DNA of 64,000 nucleotides from Bacteroidales bacterium (GTDB lineage Bacteria > Bacteroidota > Bacteroidia > Bacteroidales > Azobacteroidaceae): NCBI GenBank assembly GCA_031553755.1, contig JAVBKZ010000021.1:28251-92250 (forward strand), written 5' to 3'. The position numbers and the translations under genes were made by a program. The notes under the pieces are model-generated. The model was not told the DNA's origin and did no database searches. It saw only the letters and a program-made list of their open reading frames with translations. Position 1 is the first letter of the stretch; each line of letters starts with the position of its first letter. This document shows, one piece after another, positions 35,711 through 64,000 of the stretch.

Positions 35711-37741
35711 ATGAATGTAAAATTGAAGTTGTGTTTGTTAATTGTGTCGTTGGTTTTGTTTAACCTTAATATTTTTTCAGCAATTGGGATTGAAAAAGCA
35801 GTGACTTCTATCTCGTTAAAAGTTCCGGGAAATCATTCAAAAGAATATAGTTTAACACCTCAACTTTTAAGAACCGGAGAATATAATCTGGTTAGTTCAG
35901 AAAAAGAATTTCCTGCAATTATTTCTCAAACAATAGAAAAAAGTGGAGGATCCGATCGAATTATAACGAAAATTAAAGCGGATGAAGACATTTACTTCAA
36001 TTTTGCTCAAAAAATAGAAAGTGGTTTTAACCACAACGACTGTCAGTTTTACATGCCCGGATTTTGGTACAGACGCAATCTTCGTTCTCCCAAAGAAGCG
36101 CCATCTTTTCATACTTCCGACAGTTGGATTTTCCGTGAAGACAGATTAAGTACTCCGTTAACAGGAATATATAATGAAAAAACAGGAGAATACATTACTG
36201 TTATTAGGATTGATGACTTCAAAAATGAGGCTTTGACCACCCACAAAGAAGGCGAAGTTATCGTTTCCGGAAAAACATCCATCGGTTACACCGGATTTGA
36301 AAATATAAACGGTCAATCTGCTCTTTCATTTGGATTTCCATACCATGAAGCCCCTAAAACATATATGAGAAAATTGACATTAAGTCCTGAAATATGCGCG
36401 TTTCAATGCTTGAAAAAAGGAGAATCACTAACGCTTGTATGGGAAGTTAACAAAAATAAAGTAAGTGACTTTTCTGAGTTCATTTCTAAAGTTTGGGAAT
36501 ATTCTTATGATCTTAATAAGCCTCAAGTTGTGAATACTCCTTACACCTCTGATGTCATGAAAGATGTAATAAGCAATTTTTTTACTCAAAGTTATGTTGA
36601 TAATAAAGCGTTGAAATATACTTCCGGCGTACACTTGCATATTGATGATTGTAAAAGTACAGGTATTGCTGAAGTTGGGTTTGTGGGTCGTGTTTTACTG
36701 AACGCTTTCAACGCGATGGAATATGGAGAACAAAAAAATCGTCCTGAATTAGTGAAAAATAGCCAAAAAATATTCGAAAGTTACCTTGGAAATGGCTTGA
36801 CTAATTCCGGATTTTTTAGAGAAGTTGTAGATTTTAAAAATAATTCAGAAGAACGCAACCTCAGTATACGCCGCCAGTCGGAAGGGCTTTACGCTATACT
36901 TTATTATCTTCAGTATGAAAAGAAACAAGGTCGTAAACATTCGGAATGGGAGCAAAAAGTGAAAAATATGTTAGATCTGATATTGAAATTACAGAAAGAA
37001 GACGGAAGTTTTCCCCGTAAATTTAAAGATGATTTAAATATTGTGGACAACAGCGGAGGAAGTACACCTTCGGCTACTCCCATGTTAGTGTTGGCATCCA
37101 AATATTTTAATGACAAAAAATATATGGAAAGCGCTAAAAAAACGGCGCGATATCTTGAAAAAGAAATTATCTCGAAAGCGGACTATTTTTCTTCTACCCT
37201 TGACGCGAATTGCGAAGACAAAGAAGCCTCATATTATGCTTCAACCGCTTTATATCATCTTTCATTATTTACTAAAGGGAAAGAAAGCCAATATTATAGC
37301 GATTTGGCAAAAAAATCAGCTTATTTCTGCCTGACATGGTATTATACTTGGGATGTTCCTTTCGCTCAAGGACAAATGTTGGGAGATGTAGGTTTAAAAT
37401 CTCGTGGTTGGGGAAATGTATCGGTTGAAAATAACCACATTGATGTTTATATTTTTGATTTTGCTACAGTTCTTAATTGGTTAGCAAATAAATACAACGA
37501 ACCTCGTTTTTCTGATTTTTCAAAAGTAATCACAACATCCATGTGCCAATTACTTCCTTATGAAGGACATCTATGTGAAATTGCCAAGAAAGGTTATTAT
37601 CCGGAAGTTGTTCAACATACCAATTGGGATTATGGTAAAAATGGCAAAGGTTTTTATAATGATATTTTTGCTCCGGGTTGGACAGTCGCCTCACTTTGGG
37701 AAATGTTGTCTCCCGAAAGAATACAATTATTCTTAAAATAA
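35711..37741 (+). CDS. Secreted hypothetical protein (676 aa), C-terminal half possibly alpha/alpha-toroid-like
   Basis: Signal/anchor MNVKLKLCLLIVSLVLFNLNIFSA. No catalytic motif recognised. The helix-rich C-terminal half with LQKEDGSFPRKF and repeated aromatic-rich helices resembles (alpha/alpha)6 barrels. This is inference only. Confidence 0.5.
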   Translation: MNVKLKLCLLIVSLVLFNLNIFSAIGIEKAVTSISLKVPGNHSKEYSLTPQLLRTGEYNLVSSEKEFPAIISQTIEKSGGSDRIITKIKADEDIYFNFAQKIESGFNHNDCQFYMPGFWYRRNLRSPKEAPSFHTSDSWIFREDRLSTPLTGIYNEKTGEYITVIRIDDFKNEALTTHKEGEVIVSGKTSIGYTGFENINGQSALSFGFPYHEAPKTYMRKLTLSPEICAFQCLKKGESLTLVWEVNKNKVSDFSEFISKVWEYSYDLNKPQVVNTPYTSDVMKDVISNFFTQSYVDNKALKYTSGVHLHIDDCKSTGIAEVGFVGRVLLNAFNAMEYGEQKNRPELVKNSQKIFESYLGNGLTNSGFFREVVDFKNNSEERNLSIRRQSEGLYAILYYLQYEKKQGRKHSEWEQKVKNMLDLILKLQKEDGSFPRKFKDDLNIVDNSGGSTPSATPMLVLASKYFNDKKYMESAKKTARYLEKEIISKADYFSSTLDANCEDKEASYYASTALYHLSLFTKGKESQYYSDLAKKSAYFCLTWYYTWDVPFAQGQMLGDVGLKSRGWGNVSVENNHIDVYIFDFATVLNWLANKYNEPRFSDFSKVITTSMCQLLPYEGHLCEIAKKGYYPEVVQHTNWDYGKNGKGFYNDIFAPGWTVASLWEMLSPERIQLFLK

Positions 37742-37793
37742 TCAATCACAAATTCTACAAAAAACTATTATACCCTTATTTATTTTTAAAATC

Positions 37794-40004
37794 ATGAAGA
37801 AAAAATTACTATCGTTAGGAATTAGTGCGATACTTGCTCTGGCAGCGACAGCACAAGATGTTGATTACACAAGTTTAATTAAAAACAACAGTTTTGAATA
37901 CGCATGGGAAAATCAACTCGCAGAACCAGGTATTGATGGTTGGATAACCACAGGTTCTGGTACTTGGCGACCTTTTGCTGCAACAGATGAAAACCACCAA
38001 AAATTTTATGGATGGAATGTAACTGATTGGAGTATAAGAGCGGGTGGTGGCAACTCTCAGTCGTTAGATAAATCCGCTAATGCGACTAAAGTTGGGGATT
38101 TTAATATTGTAATTTATGGCAATGGAAAGATTGGCTCGTTATGGGAATTGTCCCAGGTTATCAGTAAAGATGATCTTCCTGCAGGAATTTACAAAGTGCA
38201 AGCTCGTTTGGCGGTTAATGTTACCGGAACTAAACCTCGATTGACAAGTCAGCGTTTGTTTGCCAACCAAAGTGTACAATATCATGGACCTCAGACAACT
38301 TATACAAAAAATTTGACTACTGGAGAAGTCAATACTTTCGCAGGTTATCCTGGTACTGACGGATCTCTTGATGAAATGACGGTATATACAACAATTGGAG
38401 AAAATGACAGTTTAAAAATAGGTATTCGTACAGGATGTGTAAAACCAGATGGAACATTTGAAACAGGTAATATTGATCCTTTTTGGGGATGTTTTAAAGC
38501 CGACTATTTCCGTATTACAAGAATGAGTGACAACACAGACTATGTACCTTTTACGAAGCTTACTTCATTGTCTTTGAAAAATGGAGGACTCACATTAATT
38601 CCGGCTTTCAATCCTGAAATTAAAAATTATACGGTTTATCTTCCGGAAGGAACAACAACTGTAACTCCAATCGCAACAGCTCCGGCAGGAGGTGTCATAA
38701 CAGGTAATGGTGAAGTAACTTTAAATGGAGGATCTGGTACTTCTACAATTTTGGTTACAGCACCCAACGGAACAACTATAGGAACTTATACCATAAATTA
38801 TATAGTTTATACTTTTACAAATGCTGTTGATTGTTCTAATCTGATAACCAACAACAGTTTTGAATATGCTTGGGAAAATCAGCTTGCCGGAGAAGGAGAT
38901 GCTGCTCTTCCTGCAAATGGTTGGAAAAATGGCAATACTTGGCGTCCTAAGTACACTGCAAATACTAGTATTTATAATACATTTTATGGATGGGAGGTAA
39001 CAGATTGGAGCATGAGAAATGGTACTAACGATGCACAGTCGCTAGAAAAAGATGGTTATCCTAAAGATCAAAATTTTGATATCGCTATTATGGGGAATAA
39101 TTTCTTCAGTGGTGAATTGTGGGAAATGTATCAAGTTATCGACAAAAATGCCCTTTCTGCCGGAACATACAAAGTACAAGCTCGTTTGGCAGTTGATGGT
39201 CCTAAACAACGGACTACCCAACGTTTATTTGCCAACAATAAAGTGCAATATCATGGAACAGAAGAGCAATATGTAAATAACAAATACCTATTAGGAAACG
39301 AAGTCGCTACTTTTGCAGGCTATTCAGGTATTGTCAATGTTCTTGAAGAAATGAAAGTGTATGTTACTATCGGCGAAGATGACGATTTGATGATTGGTAT
39401 CCGATCTGGAAATAAAAAAACGGACGGAACATTTAATACAACTGCTACAGATCCGGTATGGGGTGGGTTCAAAGCTGATTATTTCCGCTTGATAAAAATT
39501 GACCCTGCTCAAGCGGCAGATGCCACGTTAAGCGGCATAACTTTAAATCCAAACGCTACATTTGTTCCAAATTTCAGTCCTCAAACTACATCCTATAATG
39601 TACAGTTGCCAGTTGGAACAAATTCTGTTACTCCTATGCTTCTTCCAACTATTCCTGATGCCAAAATTACAGGTGTTGGCGCGGTAGATGTGAGTTCCGG
39701 ATCGGGAGTTTCAACAATTGAAGTAACGGCTCTTAATGGTACAACAAAAAAAATATATACAATCAATTATTCAGCAGGACCTGTTACTGGCTTTAAAGAA
39801 GCAAAAGCCGTAGATTGTACATACAGTGTTGTTGACAGAAGATTGTCAGTTTTTGGAGTAGATGCTTATAGCGTATATTCTATAAACGGAGTAAAAATAG
39901 CCGATGTACGTAATAACGCCGAAAGGACTATTGTTGCTCTTGCTCAAGGAATTTATATTGTAAAAACAGCAAATAATCAAACGCTGAAAGTTATCGTAAG
40001 ATAA
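37794..40004 (+). CDS. T9SS-targeted protein with two tandem copies of a (CBM4/9-like jelly roll + cadherin-like beta-sandwich) unit
   Basis: Signal peptide MKKKLLSLGISAILALAATAQ. The units start VDYTSLIKNNSFEYAWENQL and VDCSNLITNNSFEYAWENQL. Cadherin-like segments (LTSLSLKNGGLTLIPAFNPEIKNYTVYLPEGTTTVTP and LSGITLNPNATFVPNFSPQTTSYNVQLPVGTNSVTP). T9SS-like tail (YSVYSINGVKI..GIYIVKT..LKVIVR). Confidence 0.65.
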   Translation: MKKKLLSLGISAILALAATAQDVDYTSLIKNNSFEYAWENQLAEPGIDGWITTGSGTWRPFAATDENHQKFYGWNVTDWSIRAGGGNSQSLDKSANATKVGDFNIVIYGNGKIGSLWELSQVISKDDLPAGIYKVQARLAVNVTGTKPRLTSQRLFANQSVQYHGPQTTYTKNLTTGEVNTFAGYPGTDGSLDEMTVYTTIGENDSLKIGIRTGCVKPDGTFETGNIDPFWGCFKADYFRITRMSDNTDYVPFTKLTSLSLKNGGLTLIPAFNPEIKNYTVYLPEGTTTVTPIATAPAGGVITGNGEVTLNGGSGTSTILVTAPNGTTIGTYTINYIVYTFTNAVDCSNLITNNSFEYAWENQLAGEGDAALPANGWKNGNTWRPKYTANTSIYNTFYGWEVTDWSMRNGTNDAQSLEKDGYPKDQNFDIAIMGNNFFSGELWEMYQVIDKNALSAGTYKVQARLAVDGPKQRTTQRLFANNKVQYHGTEEQYVNNKYLLGNEVATFAGYSGIVNVLEEMKVYVTIGEDDDLMIGIRSGNKKTDGTFNTTATDPVWGGFKADYFRLIKIDPAQAADATLSGITLNPNATFVPNFSPQTTSYNVQLPVGTNSVTPMLLPTIPDAKITGVGAVDVSSGSGVSTIEVTALNGTTKKIYTINYSAGPVTGFKEAKAVDCTYSVVDRRLSVFGVDAYSVYSINGVKIADVRNNAERTIVALAQGIYIVKTANNQTLKVIVR

Positions 40005-40015
40005 AAAATACATTA

Positions 40016-40070
40016 TTAGCACACAGAATACCTGAATATTAATAGTAATCTGTGTGCTAATTTTACTTTC
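40016..40070 (+). terminator. Intrinsic terminator
   Basis: TTAGCACACAGA (40016-40027) is the perfect complement of TCTGTGTGCTAA (40049-40060), followed by TTTTACTTTC. Confidence 0.7.
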
Positions 40071-40124
40071 AGTACAACTTTCATCTTTTACAAGAATTAT
40101 GTAAGAACCTAAAATAAAAATAGG

Positions 40125-42146
40125 ATGAAAATAAAAATACCATTTAGTATTATCTTCATATTGAGGAGTAAAATTACATTTATTCTTGCTCTTTTTATTT
40201 TTTCTTTAATTTTTACTAACTGTACAGAAGAATCAGACCATTTTTCTGATAAAGAAGAAGAGGAGGTTGTAACTCCCAATACAGCAAGGTTGCTTAGTGG
40301 TAATAAGAATATGCCTACAGGTGGTATGATTACAACTGAATACAAAGACTCTCCTGTTGCATCAACCATAGATAAACTGGTAGATGATAATGTCAATACT
40401 CTTTTTTCCACTCCTCATAAGAAATTTTATATACATTGGGACGGATATCAGTCTGTCATAGTAAATCATTACACCTTGACTTCGGGCGGTGATCGCTCTA
40501 TGGATCCTAAATCATGGACTCTTTCCGCGTCGTATAATAACATGTCTTGGATTGTAGTTGACAATCAGACCAATCAGGTTTTTACAAATACAGGAGAAAC
40601 GAAATCATATAGTTTTACTAACAAAACCACGTATAGATATTATAAGTTGGATATTACAGCCAACAATGGAGGTTCTTCAACTCAAATAGCAGAGTGGACT
40701 TTGGAAAAAAAAGAAAATCCGGACTTGCCTAATTCCGAAAATGTTGAAGTACAAAATACCAATGTACCCACAGCGGGAATTATTACTTCGCAGTACAGCG
40801 ACTCGCCCGAAGAGTCTAATATCCTTAAAATCATTGATTCAAACAATAATACAAAGTTTGTAACTCATCACAAGGAGTTTTATATTTTGTGGGAAGGTAG
40901 CGCAAAAGCGATGGTTACTTATTACGCGTTCACGTCTGCCGCTGAAAATCCGGAAATGGATCCTGAATCGTGGACTTTTTCTGCATCAAACGATAAGGAG
41001 TCGTGGACGGTCTTAGATACACAAAAAGAACAATTGTTTAAAACCAGAGGTGAAAAGAAAGAATATTATTTTAACAATACAATTGCTTATAAATTCTACA
41101 AATTAAATGTATTGAGTAATAAAGGTGGTGAATCCACACAAATAGCTGAGTGGAAAATGAGGGCTTTCCCCTCCAGTATGACTGACTTGATGACTTATTC
41201 AAATGGAAGGACATACTCATCACAGACTCCGATGGGCACAAAATTTCAGAATAGGCATGTTACCACAGCCGCGGATAAAATCTGGTTGTCCACCGCTTCA
41301 AATGAACCAGCGCTACTCAATTCAGCGTCGAGTCTCACTCAATGGAAAGAATTCGCGGTAACTCTTTATCCCTACAATGTTCCAATGCCTGCCGATGTGA
41401 ATCAACATGGTGTTGGCGACTGTTGCGCATTGGCTGTTTTTGCCTCATTTGCTTATATCTATCCCAATTTTATAAAAGATATAATTACAGATAATGGAGA
41501 CAAAACATATACCGTTGCCATGTTTGATCCACAAGGAAATCCTGTGGATGTAACAGTATCTTCTAAATTTTTGGCTGACAAAAATGGAACGATAGGAGCT
41601 GTAACCGGTAAAAATAACCGGGTGACTTGGGCTACCATACTCGAAAAAGCAATGATGAAATGGCAAAATATCTATAAAGTAAATGAAGATATTGGAGGAA
41701 TAGGTACCGAACATGTCGCACCGCTTTTTACCGGAGATGGTGACAGTTTCGCTTTTTCAGCGAACAAGTTGAATTCCGAACAGCTTTTACGAGCTGTGAT
41801 TGTGTCTCTCATTCAAGGTAAGATTGTTGTCGGTGGATTCACGAAAGGTGGAGTTGCCGTCAGCGGTAACCACAAAACTGTATCGGGACATGCTTTTACC
41901 ATGATGCATTCGTTAAACAAAACAGCTTTGTTCTCCATGCGTAATCCATGGGGAGGAGAAGAAGATGGGGTCTTAAATATTCCAGATAACGATATTATTC
42001 CACCAATGATTGATGTGCGTATTGTGAATCCGGGCAAAGCGGCAAAATATGCCAAAGGATCCACTGATCCCTATACACCTCCTAATTACGCTCCTTCCGA
42101 GAATCGCATTCGGGTCGCGGAAGAATTACTGAGATCAGGGATGTAA
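40125..42146 (+). CDS. Calpain-like (peptidase family C2) cysteine protease lipoprotein with two N-terminal discoidin (F5/8-C) modules
   Basis: Lipobox-like ..FSLIFTNCTEE. Two discoidin-like modules, each ending STQIAEW(T/K). C-terminal domain has the calpain-type triad context NQHGVGDCCALAVFAS (Cys), VSGHAFTMMH (His) and MRNPWGGEEDG (Asn). Confidence 0.7.
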   Translation: MKIKIPFSIIFILRSKITFILALFIFSLIFTNCTEESDHFSDKEEEEVVTPNTARLLSGNKNMPTGGMITTEYKDSPVASTIDKLVDDNVNTLFSTPHKKFYIHWDGYQSVIVNHYTLTSGGDRSMDPKSWTLSASYNNMSWIVVDNQTNQVFTNTGETKSYSFTNKTTYRYYKLDITANNGGSSTQIAEWTLEKKENPDLPNSENVEVQNTNVPTAGIITSQYSDSPEESNILKIIDSNNNTKFVTHHKEFYILWEGSAKAMVTYYAFTSAAENPEMDPESWTFSASNDKESWTVLDTQKEQLFKTRGEKKEYYFNNTIAYKFYKLNVLSNKGGESTQIAEWKMRAFPSSMTDLMTYSNGRTYSSQTPMGTKFQNRHVTTAADKIWLSTASNEPALLNSASSLTQWKEFAVTLYPYNVPMPADVNQHGVGDCCALAVFASFAYIYPNFIKDIITDNGDKTYTVAMFDPQGNPVDVTVSSKFLADKNGTIGAVTGKNNRVTWATILEKAMMKWQNIYKVNEDIGGIGTEHVAPLFTGDGDSFAFSANKLNSEQLLRAVIVSLIQGKIVVGGFTKGGVAVSGNHKTVSGHAFTMMHSLNKTALFSMRNPWGGEEDGVLNIPDNDIIPPMIDVRIVNPGKAAKYAKGSTDPYTPPNYAPSENRIRVAEELLRSGM

Positions 42147-42210: not shown

Positions 42211-45200
42211 ATGAAAACACAGAAACTTAAAATTATTGCTTTTTGCCTTTCGGCTATTCTTTTTGCAAATACTGTGAAAGCGGAAGAACCGAACATTGTT
42301 GTAGACGGAAATGCTCGTTTTACTGTACTTACTCCAAGTTTAATAAGAACAGAATATTCTGGTGATGGAGTCTTCGAAAACAAGAAAAGCTATAACATTG
42401 TGGATCATAACTTGACTTCCACTTCCTATACGACAAAAGTAAACGATGGTTGGCGTGAAATTGAAACAGAAAAGCTATTACTTCGTTACAAACAAAACTC
42501 AGGAGCTTTTGATTCCACCAATTTAGTTATCAATTTAAAAGAACGGCTAACCTATGCAAAACCTTGGGTTTCAACAACAGGGAGTAGCTTTTTTCAGAGT
42601 GAAGCCGAAAAACTTAAACTCTATGGAGGCGCGACGACAGCTACTGATCATAAAAACTATACAGGTACCGGATTTGTCGCAGGACTTAAGTATGTCGGAG
42701 CGGGAATGCAATGGTCAATGAATAATGATATATTCGCAGGAGAATATATCATCTCTTTAAGATATTGTAGCGGCAAAGGAGCTCAAACCATTAGTTTATA
42801 TATAGATGGAGTGAGAACACAAATACAATTGGAGGCAACAGCCGATTGGGATACATGGAAAACCTTCACAAAAAAAATAGATTTAGCCAAAGGGTCACAT
42901 ACTTTCAAAGTGCAATGTGACGCTGAAGATACCTACAACGTCAATTTCGATTGGGTAAGTGTATTGCCAAATATTGGTATAAATCAAATTTGTGAAGCTG
43001 AAAATGCCAATCTTGAAGGAGGCGCTTCAAACGCGAGTAATCATGCGGGATTCAGTGGAACAGGCTTTGTCGCAGGATTGAAAGTTGTAGGAGCCAAAAT
43101 TACATGGAACGTAAACAACTCTTTGTCTGCAGGAAATTACACGCTTACAATTAAATACACGAATGGCATTCCGGCCGACAATCAACATATTGCCCGGACA
43201 ATAAGTTTATACATAAACAACGTAAAAACTCAAATCACACTTGAACCTACAGCGGATTGGGCAACATGGGGATTTTTCACAAAAACAGTTCCATTGATTG
43301 CGGGACAAAACACCATCGTTTTATCATGTGATACCGGCGACTCGTACAATGTAAATATTGACTGGCTAACCCTTACTCAGGTGGAAGGAGAATTACCGAA
43401 AGAAAATATTATCCCTGTATCATCCAGTTCAAATCTGGGAGCATGGTCGCGTGGATTAGATGAGAAAAAAGGATCAATTCCTTTGTGGGATGGAATTTTA
43501 AGCCGCGATGGTTGGTACTTGTTAGATGATAGCCAAACAGCGTTGCAAGATGGAGAAGGTTGGGTGGTCGATCGTCCGGTTCATGCCGGAGGCTATTTAG
43601 ATGGTTATTTCTTTGGATATGGAAATGATTATCAAACTGCTTTAAAAGAATTTTACAAGATAACAGGAAATCCGGTTTTACTTCCTAAATGGGCTTTTGG
43701 AGTCTGGTATTCAATCAATTCGGAAACATACACGAATGCTGCTTATTACAAAAATACATTATTACCAAAATTCCGTTCAGAGAAACTTCCGTTAGATGTG
43801 TTGGTAGTTGATACCGACTGGAAAACTCCAGAACGTTGGAATGGTTGGAATTGGATTAGCACGAATTTCCCAGATCCACAAGGATTTATGGATTGGACAA
43901 AAGAACAAAATTTGGTCATCCCATTAAATGTTCATCCGACCATTCAGAATAATGATCCGAGATTCGCTCAAACAAATACCACAGCGGGAGGATTAATCCA
44001 AAATGGCAGTAGGTATCATTTTGATTTTACCAATAAAAAGCATACGAAAGCTTATTTTGATTTGCATGAACCATTTAATAGTCAAGGAGTTCGTTTCTGG
44101 TGGTTTGATCAAGCAGAAACTCCAAACTCTCAAGTGGCCGGAGTACCAGCAGATACATGGATAAATGGTCTGTATGCCAAATATGCAAATGATCAAAATT
44201 TGCGTGGGTTTGCATTTTCACGGATTGGCTCAGGGCATGCCGGTTATAGTGATAGCAGAACTCCCGGAATCGCATGGTCGGAACACCGTTACACATTGCA
44301 TTTTACCGGTGATACATACAACGAATGGAGTATGCTTGCTTTTCAATCTACTTTCACGATCAAGGAAGCCAATATAGGTATTCCATACGTTTCACATGAT
44401 TTAGGTAGTTATCATGGAAATCATTTAAGTGATGACATGTATATGCGCTGGGTACAATTTGGAACTTTCCAACCGATTTTCCGTTTGCATTCCAAACGAG
44501 GAGAACGTTTACCTTGGCAATATCCTAATGTAGCTCAACAGGCAACTGAGTTTATTCGTTTACGTGAAGCGTTGGTTCCCTATACCTATTCTTTAGCTCA
44601 CGAATCATCAACAGGTGGTATGCCCATTGTAAGAGGAATGTATTTTTATTATCCAGAAGCAGCAGAATCTTATACATTTGATAAACAATATTTTTATGGA
44701 GAAAAAATGCTTGTATCTCCGATTGTAACTGCCGGAGCTACAGCTTCGACACAAGTTTGGTTTCCTGAAGGCACTTGGATTAATTATTTTACCAATGAAA
44801 AAATAGCTGGGCCAAAAACACAAAACATAACTGCCGATTATAGTACAATGCCTGTTTTTGTGAAAGCCGGAGGTATTATTCCATTGGCGCCATATTCCGA
44901 TTGCGTTAGTCAAATGACTGCAGAATCTCTTATCTTAAAAGTATATGCAGGAGACGATGGTGAATTTACCTTGTATGAAGATGAAGGAGAAAATTTGAAT
45001 TATCAAAATAGTAAATACGCATTAACAAAATGTATATACAAAGAACAAGACAGAAAATTCTCAATCAAAGCATCTCAGGGAGATTATACGGGAGCCGCTA
45101 AACAACGCGCGTATGATATTGGATTTTATAATGCCGTTATTCCTGAAAGAATCTTAGTGAATGGAGTTCAACTGAATCGAATAGCGGCTGCATCCGGAGA

Positions 45201-47369: not shown

Positions 47370-47378
47370 ACAACAATT

Positions 47379-49034: not shown

Positions 49035-49063
49035 TATTTTTTGAATTTTTAAAATTATATAAT

Positions 49064-56076: not shown

Positions 56077-56090
56077 TACTGTTGAAAGTT

Positions 56091-58616
56091 ATGTTTGGAA
56101 AAAAATACATAATACTTATAATTATCCTGTTATATTCTTTTCATTTGTTTTCGAAGAAACAAATTAATGGACTTTTGTTCTCTTCAAGCGAGGAAAGAAT
56201 AAATGATCGTACCTCTTTGATTTTATTTGACGATAGTCCTTTGAAATTGAAAGATGCTTTTCGAATTGATTTCGATTTAGCGATATGGGATATTAAACAG
56301 TTTGGCTATATACTACGGATAATAAACGAAAATAAGCAAGAGATTAATTTTTCGTTTGTGAATTTCTATGGTGAAGATAAAATTTATTTAGATTTTCATA
56401 GCCCGATAACACACGAATCTGTTCAAATACCATTTTCGGTACAAGACATTGAGGAAAAACGTTGGTTGCCAATCAGCATTATTTTCGATCTTAAAAAAGA
56501 TCGGGCTGAGGTTGTCTCAAAAGACTCTTCTTATATATGTAAATCGATCGGTTTGCAAAATCCCTCCCGCATAAAATTGGCTTTTGGATTATACGGACTC
56601 AATTTGGATGTACCACAAATGGCAATCCGGGATATTCGGATTGGAGAAGTAGGTGGAAGAATACACAACGTTCCCTTGGATGGATTAAGGAACGAAATTG
56701 TACATGATGACAATGGCAAGGTAAGAGGGATTTCTAAAAATCCTAAGTGGTTGGTATATAAACATTATTATTGGGAAGAGAAAGCTGTATTTGAATCCGA
56801 CCCTACTACCGGAATAGCTTATGATTCGAGCCGGAATAATGTTATTGTAGTAGATAAAGATGCTATCTTCAGCTATTCGATGAGATATGATAATGAAAGA
56901 AAAGTTCTCATAAAAGATTTTCCTTTCGCGTTGAATTCGGGTGAAGCTATTTATGATGATAAAACGAACTTGTTGTATGTCTATAATTTAGAACAAAAAA
57001 CGCCGGATAGCCCAACTATGGCTATTATCAATATGGTAAATAATAAAATAGAATATAAACATGCCTCCATGAGTCACCGTCTATATCATCACAATGCTTT
57101 TATGGGCACTGAAAAAAAAGGTTTTTATATTTTCGGAGGTTATGGCAATCATTCATATTCGAATAAAATATTAAAATATAACATTCAAACAGATAGTTGG
57201 GAACAAGTGGATTTTACCGGAGATGAAATATATTCCCGATACTTTTCAGCCTCAGGTCAAGGGAAAGAGCCATCGCAAATATTGATTATGGGTGGAATAG
57301 GAAACGAATCCGGTAAACAAGAACATGGAGGACGGCATTTGTCTGATTTGTTTTCATTAGATATCGAAACAAAACAGGTAAAAAAGATATGGGATATAAA
57401 AGATGTCCATTCGGGTTTTGTTCCTTGTAGTAATTTGATACTCAGTGAAGACAGTACACATTTTTTTACTCTATGTTATCCACAGCATGAAGTAAATTCA
57501 ACATTGCAATTATATAAATTCCGACTTTCCGATGGAAGCTATGAAGTTGTAAGTGATACGATTCATATCAATGCGGAACAAATGGAAACATCAGTTTATT
57601 TGTTCTATAATAAACAATTGAAAGAATTTTATACTGTTATCAGAGAAAATAATGTGGATAGAAAAGCAAAAATATTGATATATTCACTCTTGTCTCCTCC
57701 CGTAAATTTTTCAGAATTAAAATCAGAAGAAAATCAGTCAATATTTTATTGGGTTCTATTTTCATCTTTATTTCTTATAATCGCTATATCAGCCATCGTG
57801 TTATTGTTACGGAAAAAAAGACGTAGAACGGAATTATTGGCCTTGTTAGAAAAAAATTATCAGGAGGAAAAAAAGTCTCAATCAAAAAAAGAAGTAGATA
57901 AGAAAAATGCGATTTTTATTTTTGGAAATTTTGCTGTGTATGATAAAAATAACAGAGAAATAAGTTATCGGTTTAGCTCGAAATTAAAATCGCTTTTCGC
58001 GTTGATACTTTTTTACAGTATTGAAGATGATGGAGTTTCAACGGATATGATGTCTTTTTCATTGTGGCCGGACAAAGACCTTAACGGCGCAAAAAATACA
58101 AGAGGAGTCACAATTAACAGACTGAGAAATATTCTTGCTGATATTTCAGGGATAACGCTGTTTCATCAAAACTCTAAATGGTATTTCTCATTTGATTCTG
58201 ATTTCTATTGTGATTATTTAGAATACCGGAAAAGTATCAAAAATATTAAAAAAGAAATGATCGATGAAGATGAGTGTATGTCTAATTTGTCGGATATAAT
58301 AAACAGAGGACCCTTTTTCCAAAATATACAGGAAGATTGGATTGATAGTTACAAACATGAATATGAGAGTGAAATAGAAAATATACTTTGGAATTATATA
58401 GTCAAATTAAATGAAAGCAAAAAATATGTGAAAGTAATTGAGTATTCTGAATTATATTTCATCATAGATTCCTTGAATGAAGATGTTCTTAGACTATGTA
58501 TACATGCCATGCAAAAAATAGGCAAAAAAGAGCAAGCTATTACACTGTATAATAAATTTGTTGCGAATTATAAAAAATTAATGGGAGAAGACCCGATTTT
58601 ATCTCAACCAATGTAA
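56091..58616 (+). CDS. Membrane-spanning one-component regulator: periplasmic lectin-like + Kelch-type sensor, one TM helix, cytoplasmic OmpR/SARP-type winged helix + BTAD-like domain
   Basis: The ORF opens with a TTG at 56082; the ATG at 56091 is preferred. N-terminal anchor KKYIILIIILLYSFHLF. ConA/LamG-like segment (INGLLFSS..FRIDFDLAIW..LAFGLYG). Kelch-like repeats (FYIFGGYGNHSYSNKILKYNIQTDSWEQV, ILIMGGIGNESG..LSDLFSLDIETKQVKKIW). TM helix IFYWVLFSSLFLIIAISAIVLLL followed by RKKRRR. wHTH-like IFIFGNFAVYDKNNREI..LKSLFALILFYS..VSTDMMSFSLWPD..TRGVTINRLRNIL. Helical BTAD-like end (..LRLCIHAMQKIGKKEQAITLYNKFVANYKKLMGEDP). Confidence 0.65.
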   Translation: MFGKKYIILIIILLYSFHLFSKKQINGLLFSSSEERINDRTSLILFDDSPLKLKDAFRIDFDLAIWDIKQFGYILRIINENKQEINFSFVNFYGEDKIYLDFHSPITHESVQIPFSVQDIEEKRWLPISIIFDLKKDRAEVVSKDSSYICKSIGLQNPSRIKLAFGLYGLNLDVPQMAIRDIRIGEVGGRIHNVPLDGLRNEIVHDDNGKVRGISKNPKWLVYKHYYWEEKAVFESDPTTGIAYDSSRNNVIVVDKDAIFSYSMRYDNERKVLIKDFPFALNSGEAIYDDKTNLLYVYNLEQKTPDSPTMAIINMVNNKIEYKHASMSHRLYHHNAFMGTEKKGFYIFGGYGNHSYSNKILKYNIQTDSWEQVDFTGDEIYSRYFSASGQGKEPSQILIMGGIGNESGKQEHGGRHLSDLFSLDIETKQVKKIWDIKDVHSGFVPCSNLILSEDSTHFFTLCYPQHEVNSTLQLYKFRLSDGSYEVVSDTIHINAEQMETSVYLFYNKQLKEFYTVIRENNVDRKAKILIYSLLSPPVNFSELKSEENQSIFYWVLFSSLFLIIAISAIVLLLRKKRRRTELLALLEKNYQEEKKSQSKKEVDKKNAIFIFGNFAVYDKNNREISYRFSSKLKSLFALILFYSIEDDGVSTDMMSFSLWPDKDLNGAKNTRGVTINRLRNILADISGITLFHQNSKWYFSFDSDFYCDYLEYRKSIKNIKKEMIDEDECMSNLSDIINRGPFFQNIQEDWIDSYKHEYESEIENILWNYIVKLNESKKYVKVIEYSELYFIIDSLNEDVLRLCIHAMQKIGKKEQAITLYNKFVANYKKLMGEDPILSQPM

Positions 58617-58698: not shown

Positions 58699-58717
58699 TT
58701 AACCCATTATTTAACCC
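58699..58717 (+). promoter_or_regulatory. Heptamer direct repeat TTAACCC-ATTAT-TTAACCC (second copy of candidate operator)
   Basis: Identical to 35519-35537 except for one spacer base. Preceded in both cases by A (ATTAACCC). It ends 21 nt upstream of the -7 box at 58739. Confidence 0.6.
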
Positions 58718-58738
58718 AAATAGTAATACTGTATATTA

Positions 58739-58746
58739 TATATTTG
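58739..58746 (+). promoter_or_regulatory. -7 box TATATTTG of the second DUF4965 gene; no -33 TTTG at the expected position
   Basis: Exact TAnnTTTG match 53 nt upstream of the ATG at 58799. The -33 position is flanked or occupied by the heptamer repeat. Confidence 0.5.
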
Positions 58747-58798
58747 GTAATAATTTAAATAAATTTTTATATTATTGACTTTAGAGCTAAATTTACAC

Positions 58799-61279
58799 AT
58801 GAAAAAAAATCTTCCAATTTTATTATTAAGCATCATTTTGCTTATCTCATGCGGAAACAACAAATGTGAATTTGTTAAAAATGATTTGCGAGCTCCGGCT
58901 TATCCGCTTATTACGATTGACCCTTACACAAGTGGATGGTCATTTACGGATAATTTGTATGATGGATCAGTGAAACACTGGACAGGGAAGGACTTTCCTT
59001 TAATCGGACAAATAAAGGTAGATGGAGAAACTTATCGTTTCATGGGAATTGAAGAATTGGAATTGAATCCGCTCGTGCCGACTTCGGAACAAGGTGACTG
59101 GAGTGGAAAATATACAGAATCTAAACCGGCTAACGACTGGATCAAAAATAATTTTGATGATTCGAAATGGAAAAGCGCGAAAGGCGCTTTTGGTACTACG
59201 CACAATGAACCTACATCGAAAACACATTGGGAATCAGAACATATATGGATAAGACGTGCAGTTACTATTGACCAGGATTTGAAAGGAAAAAACATATATC
59301 TTGAATATTCAAACGATGATGGCGCTGAATTTTATATCAATGGAATTTTGGCTTTTGAAACCGGAAATACTTGTAACAAAAATAAAATGGCGAAACTTTC
59401 TCCCGAAGTTGTGAACTCGCTTGTTGTGGGAGAAAACCTTATCACGGCGCATTGTCATAATCCGGTAGCTAACGGATTAATTGATTTTGGATTATTGGTC
59501 GAAAAAGAAAAACAAAACGCCATGAAACAAACCGCGGTTCAGAAATCAGTAGATGTTCAGGCGATGCAAACCCGTTACAAATTCACTTGTGGAACTGTAG
59601 ATTTGAATTTGACTTTCACTGCTCCGCTGTTTATGAACAATTTAGATTTAATGACTCGTCCGGTAAACTATATTACTTATGAAGTAATTTCGAATGATAA
59701 ACAAGCGCATGAAGTAGAAATTTATTTTGAAGCGTCTCCTCAATGGGCGTTAGATCAACCATATCAACAAGCAGTCAGTGAGCGTTTTGAAGAAGATGGT
59801 TTGGTATTTATGAAAACAGGAAGTGTCGACCAAAATGTCTTGGTTAAATTTGGCGATGATGTCCGTATAGATTGGGGATATTTTTATATGGCTTCCGAAA
59901 AAGAAAATACAAAAACCGACATTGGCAATGGCGAATCTTTAAGAAATGCTTTCATAAGTGGAAATTATAACAACAATACCAAAGGAGAAAATGAAAATGC
60001 GAAATTAGCATTGGTAAAAAAACTCGGAAAAACGAAACAATCTTCCGGAAAAATAATGATTGGTTATGACGATATTTATTCCATTCAATACTTCGGAGAA
60101 AATTTACGTCCTTATTGGAACCGCAATAACAACGAAACGATTCTTTCTCAATTCAAGAAAGCAAATAAGGAATATGAAAAATTGATGAAAGAATGTTGTG
60201 AGTTCGACAATGATTTAATGAAAAAAGCCACAGCGTCCGGAGGAAAGAAATATGCCGAACTTTGTGTTTTAGCATACCGTCAGGCAATTTCGGCTCACAA
60301 ATTAGTGCAAGCTCCTAATGGCGATTTATTATTCTTATCGAAAGAAAATAATAGCAATGGTTCTATCGGAACAGTAGATATCACATATCCATCTGCTCCT
60401 TTATTCCTGTGTTACAATATTGAGTTAGCTAAAGGATTGATGAATCATATTTTTTATTACAGTGAAAGTGGAAAATGGGCCAAGCCTTTTCCTTCTCATG
60501 ATGTAGGTACTTACCCTCGTGCAAACGGACAAACTTATGGAGGAGATATGCCAGTGGAAGAATCCGGAAATATGTTGATATTGGCCGGCGTTATTGCCAA
60601 GTTGGAAGGAAATGCCGATTACGCGAAAAAACATTGGAATGTATTGTCGGTTTGGGCTGATTATTTGGCGGAAAAAGGATTAGATCCGGAAAATCAACTT
60701 TGTACGGATGACTTTGCCGGACACTTCGCGCACAATACCAACCTTTCTATTAAAGCCATTTTAGGAGTAGCTTCTTATGGTCATCTGGCAGATATGCTCG
60801 GAGATAAATCAGTTGCTGAGAAATATATTTCAAAAGCTCGTGAAATGGCGCAGGAATGGGCTAAAATGTCGGATGATGGAGATCATTACAGACTGACTTT
60901 TGATAAGCCCGGAACATGGAGCCAAAAATATAATCTTGTTTGGGATAAATTGCTTAAATACGACATTTTCCCGAAAGAAATAGCTGAAAAAGAAATAAAA
61001 TATTATCTCACGAAACAAAATCAATATGGTTTGCCGCTCGACAATAGAGAAAGCTATACAAAAGCCGACTGGATTATATGGACTGCTACCATGGCGAATG
61101 ACAATGCTACTTTTGAGAAATTTATAGATCCGCTTTATTTATTTATGAATGAAACAAAAGATCGCATTCCTATGTCTGATTGGGTATTCACGGATAAACC
61201 CTATCATCGCGGTTTTCGTGCGCGTTCGGTTGTAGGCGGATACTACATAAAAATGCTTGAAGAAAAATTAATGAAATAA
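58799..61279 (+). CDS. DUF4965/DUF5127/DUF1793 (glutaminase-A-like) lipoprotein, paralog of 53537-56050
   Basis: The ORF opens at 58775; the ATG at 58799 gives MKKNLPILLLSIILLISCGNN (lipobox). Colinear with 53537-56050 over the whole length (LRAPAYPLITIDPYTSGW, IWIRRAVTI..YLEYSNDDGAEFYINGI, YPSAPLFLCYN, VEESGNMLILAGVIA, YNLVWDK, YGLPLDNRESYTKADWIIW). Confidence 0.7.
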   Translation: MKKNLPILLLSIILLISCGNNKCEFVKNDLRAPAYPLITIDPYTSGWSFTDNLYDGSVKHWTGKDFPLIGQIKVDGETYRFMGIEELELNPLVPTSEQGDWSGKYTESKPANDWIKNNFDDSKWKSAKGAFGTTHNEPTSKTHWESEHIWIRRAVTIDQDLKGKNIYLEYSNDDGAEFYINGILAFETGNTCNKNKMAKLSPEVVNSLVVGENLITAHCHNPVANGLIDFGLLVEKEKQNAMKQTAVQKSVDVQAMQTRYKFTCGTVDLNLTFTAPLFMNNLDLMTRPVNYITYEVISNDKQAHEVEIYFEASPQWALDQPYQQAVSERFEEDGLVFMKTGSVDQNVLVKFGDDVRIDWGYFYMASEKENTKTDIGNGESLRNAFISGNYNNNTKGENENAKLALVKKLGKTKQSSGKIMIGYDDIYSIQYFGENLRPYWNRNNNETILSQFKKANKEYEKLMKECCEFDNDLMKKATASGGKKYAELCVLAYRQAISAHKLVQAPNGDLLFLSKENNSNGSIGTVDITYPSAPLFLCYNIELAKGLMNHIFYYSESGKWAKPFPSHDVGTYPRANGQTYGGDMPVEESGNMLILAGVIAKLEGNADYAKKHWNVLSVWADYLAEKGLDPENQLCTDDFAGHFAHNTNLSIKAILGVASYGHLADMLGDKSVAEKYISKAREMAQEWAKMSDDGDHYRLTFDKPGTWSQKYNLVWDKLLKYDIFPKEIAEKEIKYYLTKQNQYGLPLDNRESYTKADWIIWTATMANDNATFEKFIDPLYLFMNETKDRIPMSDWVFTDKPYHRGFRARSVVGGYYIKMLEEKLMK

Positions 61280-61285
61280 AATATT

Positions 61286-61391: not shown

Positions 61392-61415
61392 TTTAAAATA
61401 TCCTTATAGTACGGC

Positions 61416-63728
61416 ATGAAAAAGAAAAAGTTTAATTCGATCATCTTAATTTTAACTGTATTTTTTGCTCTGAATACAAAAGCGAATAATCCGGTTAATT
61501 ATGTGAATCCATTGATGGGAACCTTGTCGAAGCATTCGTTTTCAAATGGAAACACTTATCCGGTAATAGCTTTACCTTGGGGAATGAATTTTTGGGTACC
61601 TCAAACCGGTGATATGGGAGATGGATGGTCGTATACTTATACTTCGGATAAGATAAAAGGATTCAAGCAAACTCACCAGCCAAGTCCGTGGATAAATGAT
61701 TACGGACAATTTTCCATTATGCCGGTAACTGGGAAAGCGGTTTTTGACCAAAATGCGAGAGCCAGTTGGTTTTCGCACAAAGCTGAAATTGCTAAACCTC
61801 ATTACTATAAGGTATATTTGGCAGATCATGATGTCGTAACCGAATTAACTCCTACAGAACGCGCTGTTATGTTTCGTTTTACTTTTCCGGAAAATGAAAA
61901 TTCATATATTGTTATAGATGCGTTTGACAAAGGCTCATATATGAAAATATTTCCTGAAGAAAATAAAATAATAGGTTACACAACGAAAAACAATGGAGGA
62001 GTTCCTGATAATTTCAAGAACTATTTTGTAATCAAGTTTGATAAACCATTTAGTTATATCGCTTCGGTAAGTGACGGTAAGATAAGCAAAGACCTCACAG
62101 AAAGTAATTCGAATCACGCGGGCGCTATTATAGGTTTTTCTACAAAAAAAGGAGAAAAAGTACATGCTAAAATCGCGTCTTCTTTCATTAGTTTTGAACA
62201 AGCTGAAATAAACCTGAAAGAATTAGGAAAAGACAGTTTTGAACAAGTTGTCGAAAAAGGAAAAAAAAGATGGAATGAGGTATTGGGAAAAATTCAGGTA
62301 GAAGACGATAATATAGACAATTTGCGTACTTTCTATTCTTGTCTTTATCGTTCGGTTTTGTTTCCGCGTGCGTTCTATGAATATGACGCGACAGGAAAAA
62401 TAGTCCATTATAGTCCATATAACGGAGAAGTATTACCCGGTTATATGTTTACCGATACTGGATTTTGGGATACGTTCCGTTGTCTTTTTCCTTTCCTCAA
62501 TTTACTATATCCTTCAATGAACGAAAAAATGCAGGAAGGATTAGTCAATGTATATAAAGAAAGCGGATTCCTTCCGGAGTGGGCAAGCCCGGGCCATAGG
62601 GGTTGTATGGTTGGAAATAATTCCGCTTCAATTGTAGCTGACGCTTATTTAAAAGGATTGAAAAATTATGATATAGAAACTCTTTGGAAAGCTGTTAATC
62701 ATGGAGCGAATGCTGTTCATCCGAAAATCAGTTCGACAGGAAGATACGGATACGAATATTACAATAAATTAGGTTATGTTCCTTATGATGCCGGAATCAA
62801 TGAAAATGCCGCGCGTACATTGGAATACGCTTATGATGATTGGTGTATTTATCAATTGGGACAAGCTTTGGGAAAGCCTAAAAAGGAAATAGACATTTAT
62901 GCCAAACGAGCCATGAATTATAAAAATTTATATGATTCCGAATACAAATTAATGCGTGGGAAAAATCAGGATGGAACATTTCAATCTCCATTCAATCCAT
63001 TGAAATGGGGAGATGCCTTTACCGAAGGAAACAGTTGGCATTACACATGGTCGGTTTTTCACGACCCTCAGGGATTGATTAATCTGATGGGAGGAAAAAA
63101 GGAATTTAACCAAATGATGGATTCTGTATTCAATGTTCCGCCATTGTTTGATGAAAGTTATTATGGAAGTGTAATACACGAAATCCGAGAAATGCAGGTT
63201 GTAAATATGGGAAATTATGCGCATGGCAATCAACCCATCCAACACATGATTTACTTGTATAACTATTCGGGTGAACCTTGGAAAGCTCAGTATTGGATAC
63301 GCGAGGTGTTGGATAAGTTGTATTTGGCAACTCCCGATGGATATTGCGGAGATGAAGACAACGGACAAACTTCGGCCTGGTATGTTTTCTCTGCTTTAGG
63401 ATTTTATCCTGTATGCCCCGGAGCTAATCAATACATTTTAGGAACCCCTTTATTTAAGAAAACGACATTGAATTTGGAGAATGGGAACCAAGTTACGATT
63501 GAAGCCCCAAATAATGATAAAAATAGAAGATATATTCAGTCGATGAATTTCAATAATACTTCGTATAATAAAAATTACCTGAAACACGAAGATTTGAAGC
63601 AGGGAGCAAAAATAAAGTTTATCATGTCCGAAACGCCGAATATGCGGCGAGGCATCAATGAAGAAGATTTTCCGTATTCGTTTACGAATGAATTGTTAAA
63701 GGAAAAGAAAAGTAATAAAACGAAATAA
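61416..63728 (+). CDS. GH92 alpha-mannosidase
   Basis: Signal peptide. GH92 motifs VNPLMGT..GNTYPVIALPWGMNFW, GNQPIQHMIYLYNYSGEPWKAQ, YCGDEDNGQTSAWYVFSALGFYPVCPG. Confidence 0.9.
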   Translation: MKKKKFNSIILILTVFFALNTKANNPVNYVNPLMGTLSKHSFSNGNTYPVIALPWGMNFWVPQTGDMGDGWSYTYTSDKIKGFKQTHQPSPWINDYGQFSIMPVTGKAVFDQNARASWFSHKAEIAKPHYYKVYLADHDVVTELTPTERAVMFRFTFPENENSYIVIDAFDKGSYMKIFPEENKIIGYTTKNNGGVPDNFKNYFVIKFDKPFSYIASVSDGKISKDLTESNSNHAGAIIGFSTKKGEKVHAKIASSFISFEQAEINLKELGKDSFEQVVEKGKKRWNEVLGKIQVEDDNIDNLRTFYSCLYRSVLFPRAFYEYDATGKIVHYSPYNGEVLPGYMFTDTGFWDTFRCLFPFLNLLYPSMNEKMQEGLVNVYKESGFLPEWASPGHRGCMVGNNSASIVADAYLKGLKNYDIETLWKAVNHGANAVHPKISSTGRYGYEYYNKLGYVPYDAGINENAARTLEYAYDDWCIYQLGQALGKPKKEIDIYAKRAMNYKNLYDSEYKLMRGKNQDGTFQSPFNPLKWGDAFTEGNSWHYTWSVFHDPQGLINLMGGKKEFNQMMDSVFNVPPLFDESYYGSVIHEIREMQVVNMGNYAHGNQPIQHMIYLYNYSGEPWKAQYWIREVLDKLYLATPDGYCGDEDNGQTSAWYVFSALGFYPVCPGANQYILGTPLFKKTTLNLENGNQVTIEAPNNDKNRRYIQSMNFNNTSYNKNYLKHEDLKQGAKIKFIMSETPNMRRGINEEDFPYSFTNELLKEKKSNKTK

Positions 63729-63743
63729 TTAGATATAATTTAC

Positions 63744-64000
63744 ATGAAAAAGATTTTTTTAGTTTTAGTGACCTTTTTTACTTGCGCGAATGTAATTAAT
63801 GCCCAATGGTCTCCTGCAGGAGATAAAATCAAAACAAAATGGGCGGAAACGTTAAATCCGGATAACGTATTACCTGAATATCCTCGTCCGATAATGGAAC
63901 GTCAGGATTGGATAAATTTAAATGGATTGTGGGATTATGCAATCAAATCAATCGGAGAAAGTAAACCGGAAAAATTCGATGGTAAAATATTAGTACCCTT
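63744..64000 (+). CDS. GH2-family glycosidase, N-terminal fragment (runs off the window)
   Basis: My own translation from the ATG at 63744: MKKIFLVLVTFFTCANVINAQWSPAGDKIKTKWAETLNPDNVLPEYPRPIMERQDWINLNGLWDYAIK. The EYPRP..R..W..LNGLWDY pattern is typical of Bacteroidetes GH2 N-termini. Confidence 0.5.
   Translation, partial: MKKIFLVLVTFFTCANVINAQWSPAGDKIKTKWAETLNPDNVLPEYPRPIMERQDWINLNGLWDYAIKSIGESKPEKFDGKILVP

Follow-up and report, generated by a model that had tools for sequence, protein, structure and literature searches.

The yeast α-mannan system of Bacteroides salyersiae combines a polysaccharide utilization locus (PUL), PUL52, with a "CAZyme cluster," i.e., a group of carbohydrate-active enzyme genes without SusC/SusD, and at least ten of its PUL proteins, including a giant GH76-CBM6-ricin protein, carry tails of the type IX secretion system (T9SS) (Buzun et al., bioRxiv 10.1101/2022.07.15.500217). 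The MAN-PULs of Bacteroides thetaiotaomicron and its high-mannose N-glycan (HMNG) PUL72 (Cuskin et al. 2015, PMC4978465; PMC11180146) have canonical SusC/SusD pairs, are controlled by hybrid two-component systems (HTCS) or extracytoplasmic function (ECF) sigma factors, work in a "selfish" periplasmic mode, and have no T9SS cargo. Here we describe a gene cluster at positions 35711-64000 of a 64,000-nucleotide stretch of contig JAVBKZ010000021.1 (hereafter the window), which belongs to an uncultured Bacteroidales bacterium whose nearest relatives come from termite and other gut metagenomes. With moderate confidence, we read this region as one end of a T9SS-linked CAZyme cluster with 15 genes or more, which is controlled by its own regulator (g10) and directed at fungal mannan, the protease and phosphatase genes within it being additions of this lineage.

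When the architectures are set side by side, the T9SS-dependent yeast-mannan system of B. salyersiae is the closest precedent. Its very large GH76 protein with a ricin lectin and CBM6 (Bs04077) matches a GH76-CBM6-RicinB-T9SS protein of the present cluster, GH92, GH2, and GH3 enzymes are present, and one of its mannan-induced loci is likewise without SusC/SusD. On the other hand, B. salyersiae uses HTCS regulators, whereas the regulator found here consists of a Kelch domain, a transmembrane span, and a domain of the SARP (Streptomyces antibiotic regulatory protein) type; the GH38, GH125, and GH97 enzymes of B. salyersiae were not seen in the window; and DUF4965 proteins, the g01 family, a GH32, a calpain-like protease, a TldD/PmbA pair, and a purple acid phosphatase (PAP)-like enzyme are added here. 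With the B. thetaiotaomicron systems, the locus shares the GH76-plus-GH92 logic of α-mannan degradation, and its GH92 enzyme (g12) resembles BT3990. Unlike them, it has no SusC/SusD within the cluster, and its enzymes carry T9SS tails, from which export by the T9SS is predicted. A first-pass annotation, made from the letters alone, had described an architecture different from that of canonical PULs; this is correct in that no SusC/SusD pair lies inside the visible part of the cluster, but the arrangement is not new, as the SusC/D-less CAZyme cluster of B. salyersiae precedes it.

Within 35711-64000, 12 complete open reading frames (ORFs) and one 5' fragment (g01 to g13) are all encoded on the + strand, with intergenic gaps of -4 to 158 bp, and domains were assigned by Pfam and NCBIfam profile scans of the window ORFs. 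The thirteen codirectional genes with short gaps listed by the first-pass annotation, together with their domain calls, three T9SS tails (of which that of g02 is weak), and three lipoboxes, were all borne out, as was the absence of a SusC/SusD pair from the visible part. The domain scans found no SusC or SusD domain in any ORF of 35711-64000 or in the 5.8 kb beyond, and over this range the cluster lacks the adjacent susC/susD pair of a canonical PUL; a complete PUL lies 12.5 kb upstream on the - strand. The annotation beyond position 64000 that had been called for was partly achieved. Metagenome contig L001, which is identical to the window, extends the gene run by at least two further genes: it completes the GH2 of g13 (606 amino acids) and then encodes a 1451-residue RicinB-GH76-CBM6-5xF5/8C protein with a T9SS tail (hereafter the GH76-T9SS protein). 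The two assemblies that cover this part end there. Contigs L001 (13816-13846) and L281 (6600-6630), independent assemblies of the same population, both break off 31 nucleotides past the stop codon of the GH76-T9SS gene, in a (TAAAAGA)n sequence, and a tandem repeat or a repeated element probably lies downstream.

The enzymes with the clearest bearing on the substrate are at the 3' end of the cluster. g12 (61416-63728) encodes a GH92 α-mannosidase that aligns with PDB entry 2wvx (BT3990) at 1345 bits over 733 residues; BT3990 is the α-1,2-mannosidase of the high-mannose N-glycan pathway of B. thetaiotaomicron (PMC11180146). g13 (63744-64000) is the 5' end of the GH2 gene, which runs past the edge of the window, the GH76-T9SS gene coming next. 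The closest structure to this GH2 is 7sf2, which is unannotated (E 1.6e-281), followed by 9j6n/9j6m, "Beta-D-galactofuranosidase 2" (E 2e-148). GH76 is a family of endo-α-1,6-mannanases, represented here by domains of the downstream T9SS protein and of two gene products of the upstream PUL; GH76 and GH92, which together mark α-mannan degradation systems, are thus both present. The most likely substrate, judged from these homologies, is fungal α-mannan or galactomannan or else the glycan moiety of fungal mannoproteins, because a BT3990-like GH92, a galactofuranosidase-like GH2, and a downstream GH76-T9SS protein are accompanied by a GH76-containing SusC/D PUL 12.5 kb upstream.

Two further glycosidases lie in the 5' part and the middle of the cluster. 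g04 (42211-45555) encodes two CBM6/35 modules, a GH31 domain, and a Por_Secre_tail, and its nearest solved structure is the α-xylosidase 7wj9 (E 1e-94). g08 (51859-53496) encodes a GH32 similar to β-fructofuranosidases, with WINDPNG, RDP, and EC motifs, and its nearest solved structure is the exo-inulinase 8i12 (E 2e-72). A role of g08 as a furanosidase acting on galactofuranose was considered and set aside, the motifs and best matches being those of typical fructosidases. Against the Por_Secre_tail (PF18962) cutoff of 27 bits, the tails of g04, g07, and the GH76-T9SS protein score 49.1, 45.4, and 39.1 bits, respectively, and these three proteins are predicted T9SS type A cargo.

The remaining members of the glycosidase part belong to less well characterized families. 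g01 (35711-37741) encodes a secreted protein of 676 residues without a Pfam family. More than 6500 homologues were detected, with 64-80% identity, in Bacteroides, Parabacteroides, and termite-gut taxa, and every source names them "hypothetical." In the AlphaFold2 (AF2) model (predicted template modeling score [pTM], 0.78), an N-terminal β-sandwich is followed by an (α/α)6 barrel, the top Foldseek matches are PL27, GH94, GH116, and GH63, at a loose likeness (template modeling [TM] score, 0.2-0.35), and a sequence search of the PDB gave weak LanC-like matches only. The g01 family is a candidate for an unclassified CAZyme family. g02 (37794-40004) is internally duplicated, with cadherin-like β-sandwich domains and a T9SS tail below threshold (TIGR04183, 19.9 bits versus a cutoff of 23 bits); it is probably glycan-binding cargo, and g02-like modules adjoin regulators and glycoside hydrolases in related loci L083, L085, L090, and L282. 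g09 (53537-56050) and g11 (58775-61279) encode DUF4964/DUF5127/GtaA(DUF4965) lipoproteins and are putative glycosidases. The mechanical ORF start of g11 is a TTG at 58775, and the ATG at 58799, which opens a signal peptide and lipobox beginning MKKNLPILLL, is the better candidate. No solved structure of the DUF4965 family was found by a sequence search of the PDB. An activity-based probe for glycosidases has labeled a fungal member, and in a Streptomyces member β-galactosidase activity was only weak and no glutaminase activity was seen (PMC9668830).

In 56 of 80 metagenome loci and in 31 of 80 genome loci, a DUF4965 gene of the g11 type stands next to a BT3990-like GH92 gene (approximately 75% identity); the hosts include Bacteroides, Dysgonomonas, Sphingobacterium, Muribaculaceae, and Alistipes. 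These loci often also hold SusC, GH76-like genes, and a GH2 of 50-72% identity. On this genomic context, the pairing implies a specific role of the DUF4965 proteins in mannoside degradation. Over loci L118-L277, the two partners have 63-72% and approximately 75% identity and come from human-gut, rumen, and soil Bacteroidota, where they usually stand beside SusC/D and GH76-like genes.

The gene order of related loci indicates which parts of the cluster belong together. Locus L082 reads g01 (76%)-GH43-GH32 (75%)-DUF4965 (66%)-regulator (61%)-SusC-SusD-two surface glycan-binding proteins (SGBPs)-DUF4965 (74%), and L083 reads g01 (80%)-GH31 with CBM and T9SS tail (66%)-DUF4965 (68%)-regulator (69%)-g02-like. 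The DUF4965-regulator pair is kept in L085 and L086, and a g09 homologue directly precedes the regulator gene in all close relatives. The T9SS-rich loci L282 and L283 contain, with other genes in between, GH2 (86-87%), GH76-T9SS (62-68%), and GH31 with CBM and T9SS tail (65-67%); GH125, GH38, and GH43 are present among them, and no SusC/D was found within 10 kb. Orthologues of g01 at 76-80% identity stand first in related clusters, those of g04 (65-67%) adjoin g01 or GH76-T9SS in L083, L282, and L283, and those of g08 (71-75%), in L082 and L230, have DUF4965 and the regulator as neighbors. As far as these comparisons go, the glycosidase part is a conserved association that in relatives usually lies next to SusC/D. 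Conservation of the gene set as a unit in relatives had been named as a check; it applies to the glycosidases, the DUF4965 proteins, and the regulator, and fails for the proteases and the phosphatase. Because the spacers downstream of the regulator gene can be aligned, the same promoter appears to drive SusC in L082 and g11 here, and the SusC/SusD/SGBP block that lies between this promoter and the g11 homologue in L082 is absent from the present cluster.

The first-pass annotation had listed a membrane regulator but seen no HTCS, SusR, or ECF system in the visible part. This regulator, g10 (56082-58616), is a dedicated sensor-regulator, and the cluster is therefore not without a regulatory system. 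In the N-terminal part of g10, a signal anchor precedes a conserved domain and a Kelch β-propeller, both of which would be periplasmic, and a transmembrane helix near residues 556-578 is followed by the sequence RKKRRR and a cytoplasmic winged-helix plus BTAD domain of approximately 250 residues. The 216 homologues detected come from termite-gut Bacteroidales, Paludibacter, Dysgonomonas, and Mucilaginibacter and, where named, are called SARP-family activators; a pattern scan of genome contigs gave no close relatives. Of 17 C termini of the family, 13 contain BTAD (best E, 1.7e-8) and 11 match Trans_reg_C weakly, and g10 itself scores below the Pfam cutoff for BTAD (17.4 versus 22.1 bits). The AF2 model of its C-terminal 247 residues has a pLDDT of 89.9 and a pTM of 0.83, and all six Foldseek matches with E < 1e-3 are AfsR or EmbR (TM score, 0.57-0.62; 238-247 alignment columns; E 2e-6 to 5e-5), covering nearly the whole domain. 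A profile search of the PDB with the same C terminus gave designed TPR proteins only, and the likeness to SARPs is at the fold level only. Because of the BTAD matches in the family and the Foldseek matches to AfsR and EmbR alone, g10 is, according to the model, a one-component regulator that spans the membrane and has a SARP domain as its output part and, as predicted from its sequence, the cluster's own control system.

"SARP-OmpR" proteins have already been listed among PUL-associated regulators (PMC7641319), and no characterized member of the Kelch-transmembrane-SARP subfamily was found in the literature searched. Similar to AfsR and EmbR, g10 has a cytoplasmic winged helix with BTAD (TM score, 0.60). 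Unlike typical SARPs, it is anchored in the membrane, has a large periplasmic Kelch propeller N-terminal to the SARP domain, and is associated with a Bacteroidetes-type promoter (TAnnTTTG). In topology, as described for SusR (PMC3878776), it resembles that regulator, which also has its sensor in the periplasm, crosses the membrane, and carries its DNA-binding domain in the cytoplasm; as with SusR, the gene lies inside a glycan-utilization cluster and the predicted operators are direct repeats. The predicted SusR sites, in contrast, are two boxes 67-77 bp apart (PMC3878776) rather than adjacent 12-bp repeats.

The cluster's two longest spacers each contain a candidate operator for g10. The exact pair TTAACCC-N5-TTAACCC occurs twice in the window (35519-35537 and 58699-58717, both on the + strand) versus 0 times in 100 shuffles, and the two copies lie 5' of g01 and g11. 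Candidate operator 1 (35507-35537, + strand) consists of three direct repeats spaced by 12 bp, TTAATCT-N5-TTAACCC-N5-TTAACCC, lies 174 bp upstream of the ATG of g01, and is conserved 5' of the g01 homologues in L082 and L083. An inverted copy of the repeat pair with one mismatch (35633-35651, - strand) lies between operator 1 and the start codon, 60 bp upstream of g01, and may serve autoregulation or looping; the same inverted copy is present in a second sample, at L278 440-458. Candidate operator 2 (58699-58746, + strand) is part of the g11 promoter, in which the repeats at 58699-58717 are followed by GTAATA and the -7 box TATATTTG (58739-58746). This promoter aligns with that between the regulator gene and SusC in L082 over the operator, the GTAATA box, and the -7 box, and its layout is also seen in L282, L283, and L256.

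A survey of exact or one-mismatch copies across approximately 4.4 Mb of related loci showed that nearly all distinct sites are intergenic, 5' of homologues of g01, SusC, GH92, GH2, and GH31 or beside regulator homologues. Besides the g01 homologues of L082 and L083, the sites precede SusC immediately after the regulator gene in L082, GH92 genes beside regulator homologues in two Dysgonomonas species, the GH2...GH76-T9SS operon in L282, and the GH31-CBM-T9SS gene in L283, and a Paludibacter metagenome-assembled genome (MAG; L207) has a further one-mismatch copy next to a regulator homologue. At many sites, a third repeat, degenerate in sequence, stands 12 bp farther upstream, and in target-like promoters of six lineages the Bacteroidetes -7 box (TAnnTTTG) lies 21-24 nucleotides downstream of the repeats. 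From this distribution, the 12-bp-spaced TTAACCC repeats are a candidate operator. They recall SARP sites, as described, in being direct repeats that share one helical face and abut the upstream promoter element (PMC11301090), and g10 would bind them, to judge from their co-occurrence. Matches in L088 and L241 were discarded as lying inside coding sequence, and a link of the operator to the PAP homologue of L088 was rejected for the same reason. A repeat period of 11 bp gave only offset, mismatched matches, the real period being 12 bp. Bacteroidetes promoters depart from the sigma-70 consensus; a sigma-70 promoter and terminator scan gave the same counts as shuffled sequences, and the search for TAnnTTTG was used instead.

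Taken together, the conserved core would consist of g01, g02, g04, g08, g09, g11, g12, and g13 with the downstream GH76-T9SS gene. Its enzymes, secreted by the T9SS, held at the surface as lipoproteins, or located in the periplasm, would strip and cut fungal α-mannan, galactomannan, or mannoprotein glycans. The periplasmic Kelch propeller of g10 would sense a breakdown product, and the cytoplasmic SARP domain would bind the TTAACCC repeats and activate the g01 and g11 promoters, as their conservation suggests. Because the SusC/SusD/SGBP block is missing here, imported fragments would need another transporter, possibly that of the GH76 SusC/D PUL 12.5 kb upstream. To this core, three modules would have been added in this lineage: the CBM32-calpain lipoprotein, the secreted TldD/PmbA pair, and the T9SS-tailed PAP-like enzyme.

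Several observations weigh against this reading. GH125 and GH38, which are typical of mannan systems, were not found in the window by the domain scans, although related cluster L283 carries both, and the exo-fructosidase-like GH32 and the GH31 closest to an α-xylosidase fit α-mannan in no obvious way. The TTAACCC repeat is tied to g10 through co-occurrence only, and, unlike actinobacterial SARP sites (PMC11301090), it has a period of 12 bp and a different spacing to the promoter box. The difference in SusC/D content, which comes from a comparison of two genomes, could reflect a loss here or a gain in L082. Strong hairpins follow g02, g04, and g11; that after g02 (40015-40061, + strand; folding z = -4.2) has a 13-bp stem followed by UUUUAC and is a possible terminator or processing site. 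The repeat scan of the window found no operator 5' of g03, g05, or g12, and, given these hairpins as well, transcription of all genes from the two promoters is therefore uncertain.

The protease and phosphatase genes appear, by sequence comparison, to be additions in this lineage that lie outside the conserved system. g03 (40125-42146) encodes a lipoprotein with two F5/8C (CBM32-like) modules and a calpain C2 domain and is lineage specific; a single-sequence pattern scan for close relatives found none among 185,579 species-representative genomes. With a Peptidase_C2 (PF00648) score of 46.8 bits and the motifs GDCC, GHAF, and RNPWG in its translation, it is a predicted calpain (peptidase C2). 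Bacterial calpains are reported to be rare (PMC4631099); g03 shares the Cys, His, and Asn motifs with those such as Porphyromonas gingivalis Tpr (PMC4631099) but differs in the fusion of the calpain domain to two CBM32-like modules and a lipobox.

g05 and g06 (45675-49034) encode a TldD-like and a PmbA-like protein, both with signal peptides. PF19289 was detected in both (E 2.7e-28 and 1.1e-11), and, as in Escherichia coli TldD/TldE(PmbA), the HExxxH motif (HEIFGH) is present in the TldD-like protein, g05, and absent from its partner. In contrast to the E. coli proteins, both are predicted to be extracytoplasmic, owing to their signal peptides, and because their scores are far below the NCBIfam equivalog cutoffs, they are regarded as distant, secreted relatives and not as orthologues of E. 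coli TldD/E. A Tannerella MAG from a termite gut (L007 2700-5954) carries the TldD-like and PmbA-like halves in one ORF of 1084 residues, an apparent fusion, followed by a flotillin gene and a distant homologue of the Kelch regulator. g07 (49031-51850) encodes a PAP-like metallophosphoesterase, with Pur_ac_phosph_N (PF16656, 65.2 bits) followed by Metallophos (PF00149, 37.1 bits) and a Por_Secre_tail. Its mechanical start is the TTG at 49031, and an ATG at approximately 49064, which opens a signal peptide beginning MRFPKF, is the better candidate, so that the 4-bp overlap of g06 and g07 may really be a gap of 29 bp.

The first-pass annotation had taken these genes, with the glycosidases, as one attack on a phosphorylated glycoconjugate such as fungal cell-wall phosphomannoprotein. 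Of this proposal, a fungal mannan substrate is plausible from the GH92, GH2, and GH76 evidence, whereas the view that both protease types, the phosphatase, and the glycosidases form one integrated machine for dismantling phosphorylated fungal glycoproteins is unlikely. The packing of the genes speaks for it: the gaps from g05 to g10 are 9, -4, 8, 40, and 31 bp, and because none exceeds 40 bp these genes may be coexpressed, the TldD/PmbA and PAP-like genes probably being cotranscribed with the GH32, DUF4965, and regulator genes. In addition, the F5/8C modules of g03 are homologous to the five modules of the GH76-T9SS protein (28-30% identity, E 2e-32), the order of g01-g06 in the second sample (L278) is identical to that in the window, and the mannan systems of B. 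thetaiotaomicron and B. salyersiae handle mannose-1-phosphate linkages (bioRxiv 10.1101/2022.07.15.500217).

The comparison with relatives and with known systems speaks against such a machine. Related clusters L082-L086, L282, and L283 contain no protease or phosphatase. All of the 80 loci compared, which come from Bacteroidota, Kapabacteria, and Acidobacteria, keep the TldD/PmbA pair together and lack the other cluster genes, apart from one distant regulator homologue and one GH92, and the neighbors of its closest relatives (54-62%) include genes for acetyl-CoA carboxylase, rpoB, cytochrome c assembly, and radical-SAM proteins. The closest homologue of g07 (67%) has a calcineurin-like phosphoesterase on one side and an alkaline phosphatase on the other, with TonB-dependent receptors on the flanks, which is, by gene content, a phosphate-scavenging context. 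No operator precedes g03 or g05, and the characterized systems use GH38 or dedicated phosphatases, rather than enzymes of the PAP type, to remove mannose-phosphate (bioRxiv 10.1101/2022.07.15.500217). Given the g05-g10 packing and the homology between the g03 and GH76-T9SS modules, the added genes may be functionally linked to the cluster, and the mixture is probably a local rearrangement and not a new type of system.

A bolder extension of the favored reading is doubtful. It would have the lineage genes recruited into the regulon as a glycoprotein utilization program switched on by one membrane sensor, in which the CBM32-targeted calpain and the secreted TldD/PmbA pair digest the protein part of mannoproteins, the T9SS-exported phosphatase removes phosphate, and the T9SS-exported glycosidases remove mannan; Kelch-transmembrane-SARP proteins with their TTAACCC operator would be a widespread, uncharacterized class of one-component activators in Bacteroidota that sense glycans, and the g01 and DUF4965 families new glycoside hydrolase families for fungal glycans.

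A target other than fungi, i.e., plant or bacterial fructan, xyloglucan, the side chains of α-glucan, or the high-mannose N-glycans of any eukaryote, is improbable. The GH32 is a typical exo-fructosidase, the GH31 is closest to an α-xylosidase, BT3990, the homologue of g12, acts on high-mannose N-glycans, and the g01 homologue of Bacteroides uniformis (L279/L280 10001-12034) is the terminal enzyme in a GH88-GH2-FAD oxidoreductase-GH130-GH88-GH43-GH43 operon, and an aldose epimerase gene follows it. Such a target is at odds with the three occurrences of GH76 in and around the cluster, the addition of GH125 and GH38 in relatives, and the galactofuranosidase-like GH2; to our knowledge, galactofuranose is absent from plants and animals. 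A chance juxtaposition of unrelated head-to-tail operons, without common regulation or substrate, would account for the mosaic content, the variable gene order among relatives, the hairpins between sub-blocks, and the mixed predicted specificities (fructosidase, α-xylosidase-like, and mannosidase), but it has little probability, given that one operator stands 5' of both g01 and g11 and, in relatives, 5' of GH2-GH76, GH31-T9SS, GH92, and SusC operons and that the glycoside hydrolase families recur together in many genomes.

The 5' boundary of the cluster is marked by a tRNA-Ser(GCT) gene (35133-35220, + strand; ARAGORN), approximately 300 bp upstream of the first operator and approximately 490 bp upstream of g01. 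Each relative examined has different genes ahead of its g01 homologue, and the cluster may occupy a variable, tRNA-flanked site. The separate canonical PUL (108-23152, - strand) is complete; it encodes a FecR anti-sigma factor, an STN-type SusC, SusD, SusE/F, two GH76 proteins (one of them GH76-F5/8C), a GH31, a CBM35 protein, and the T9SS-tailed proteins GH3-PA14-T9SS and GDSL-F5/8C-T9SS. Housekeeping genes, including recA, kdsB, and bcp, lie between it and the g01 cluster, and the repeat scan found no copy of the TTAACCC operator in it. No ECF sigma gene was found beside its FecR gene when positions 23153-24187 were examined; a truncated DDE transposase fragment (23265-23870) occupies the expected place, and the trans-envelope signaling pair of this PUL may be broken. 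T9SS machinery genes were not found in the 64-kb window.

If the favored reading of a g10-controlled, T9SS-linked cluster is true, the locus would add to the examples of gut Bacteroidales that attack fungal cell-wall mannan extracellularly through the T9SS, and not in a purely SusC/D-centered "selfish" mode. Such an extracellular mode would be relevant to the guts of fungus-feeding and wood-feeding insects and to cross-feeding. The 12-bp-spaced TTAACCC repeats would provide a testable operator and regulon for a family of membrane-bound SARP-type regulators, and the g01 and DUF4964/5127/4965 families, which are tied to mannan-active enzymes by synteny and shared regulation, would be good candidates for new glycoside hydrolases.

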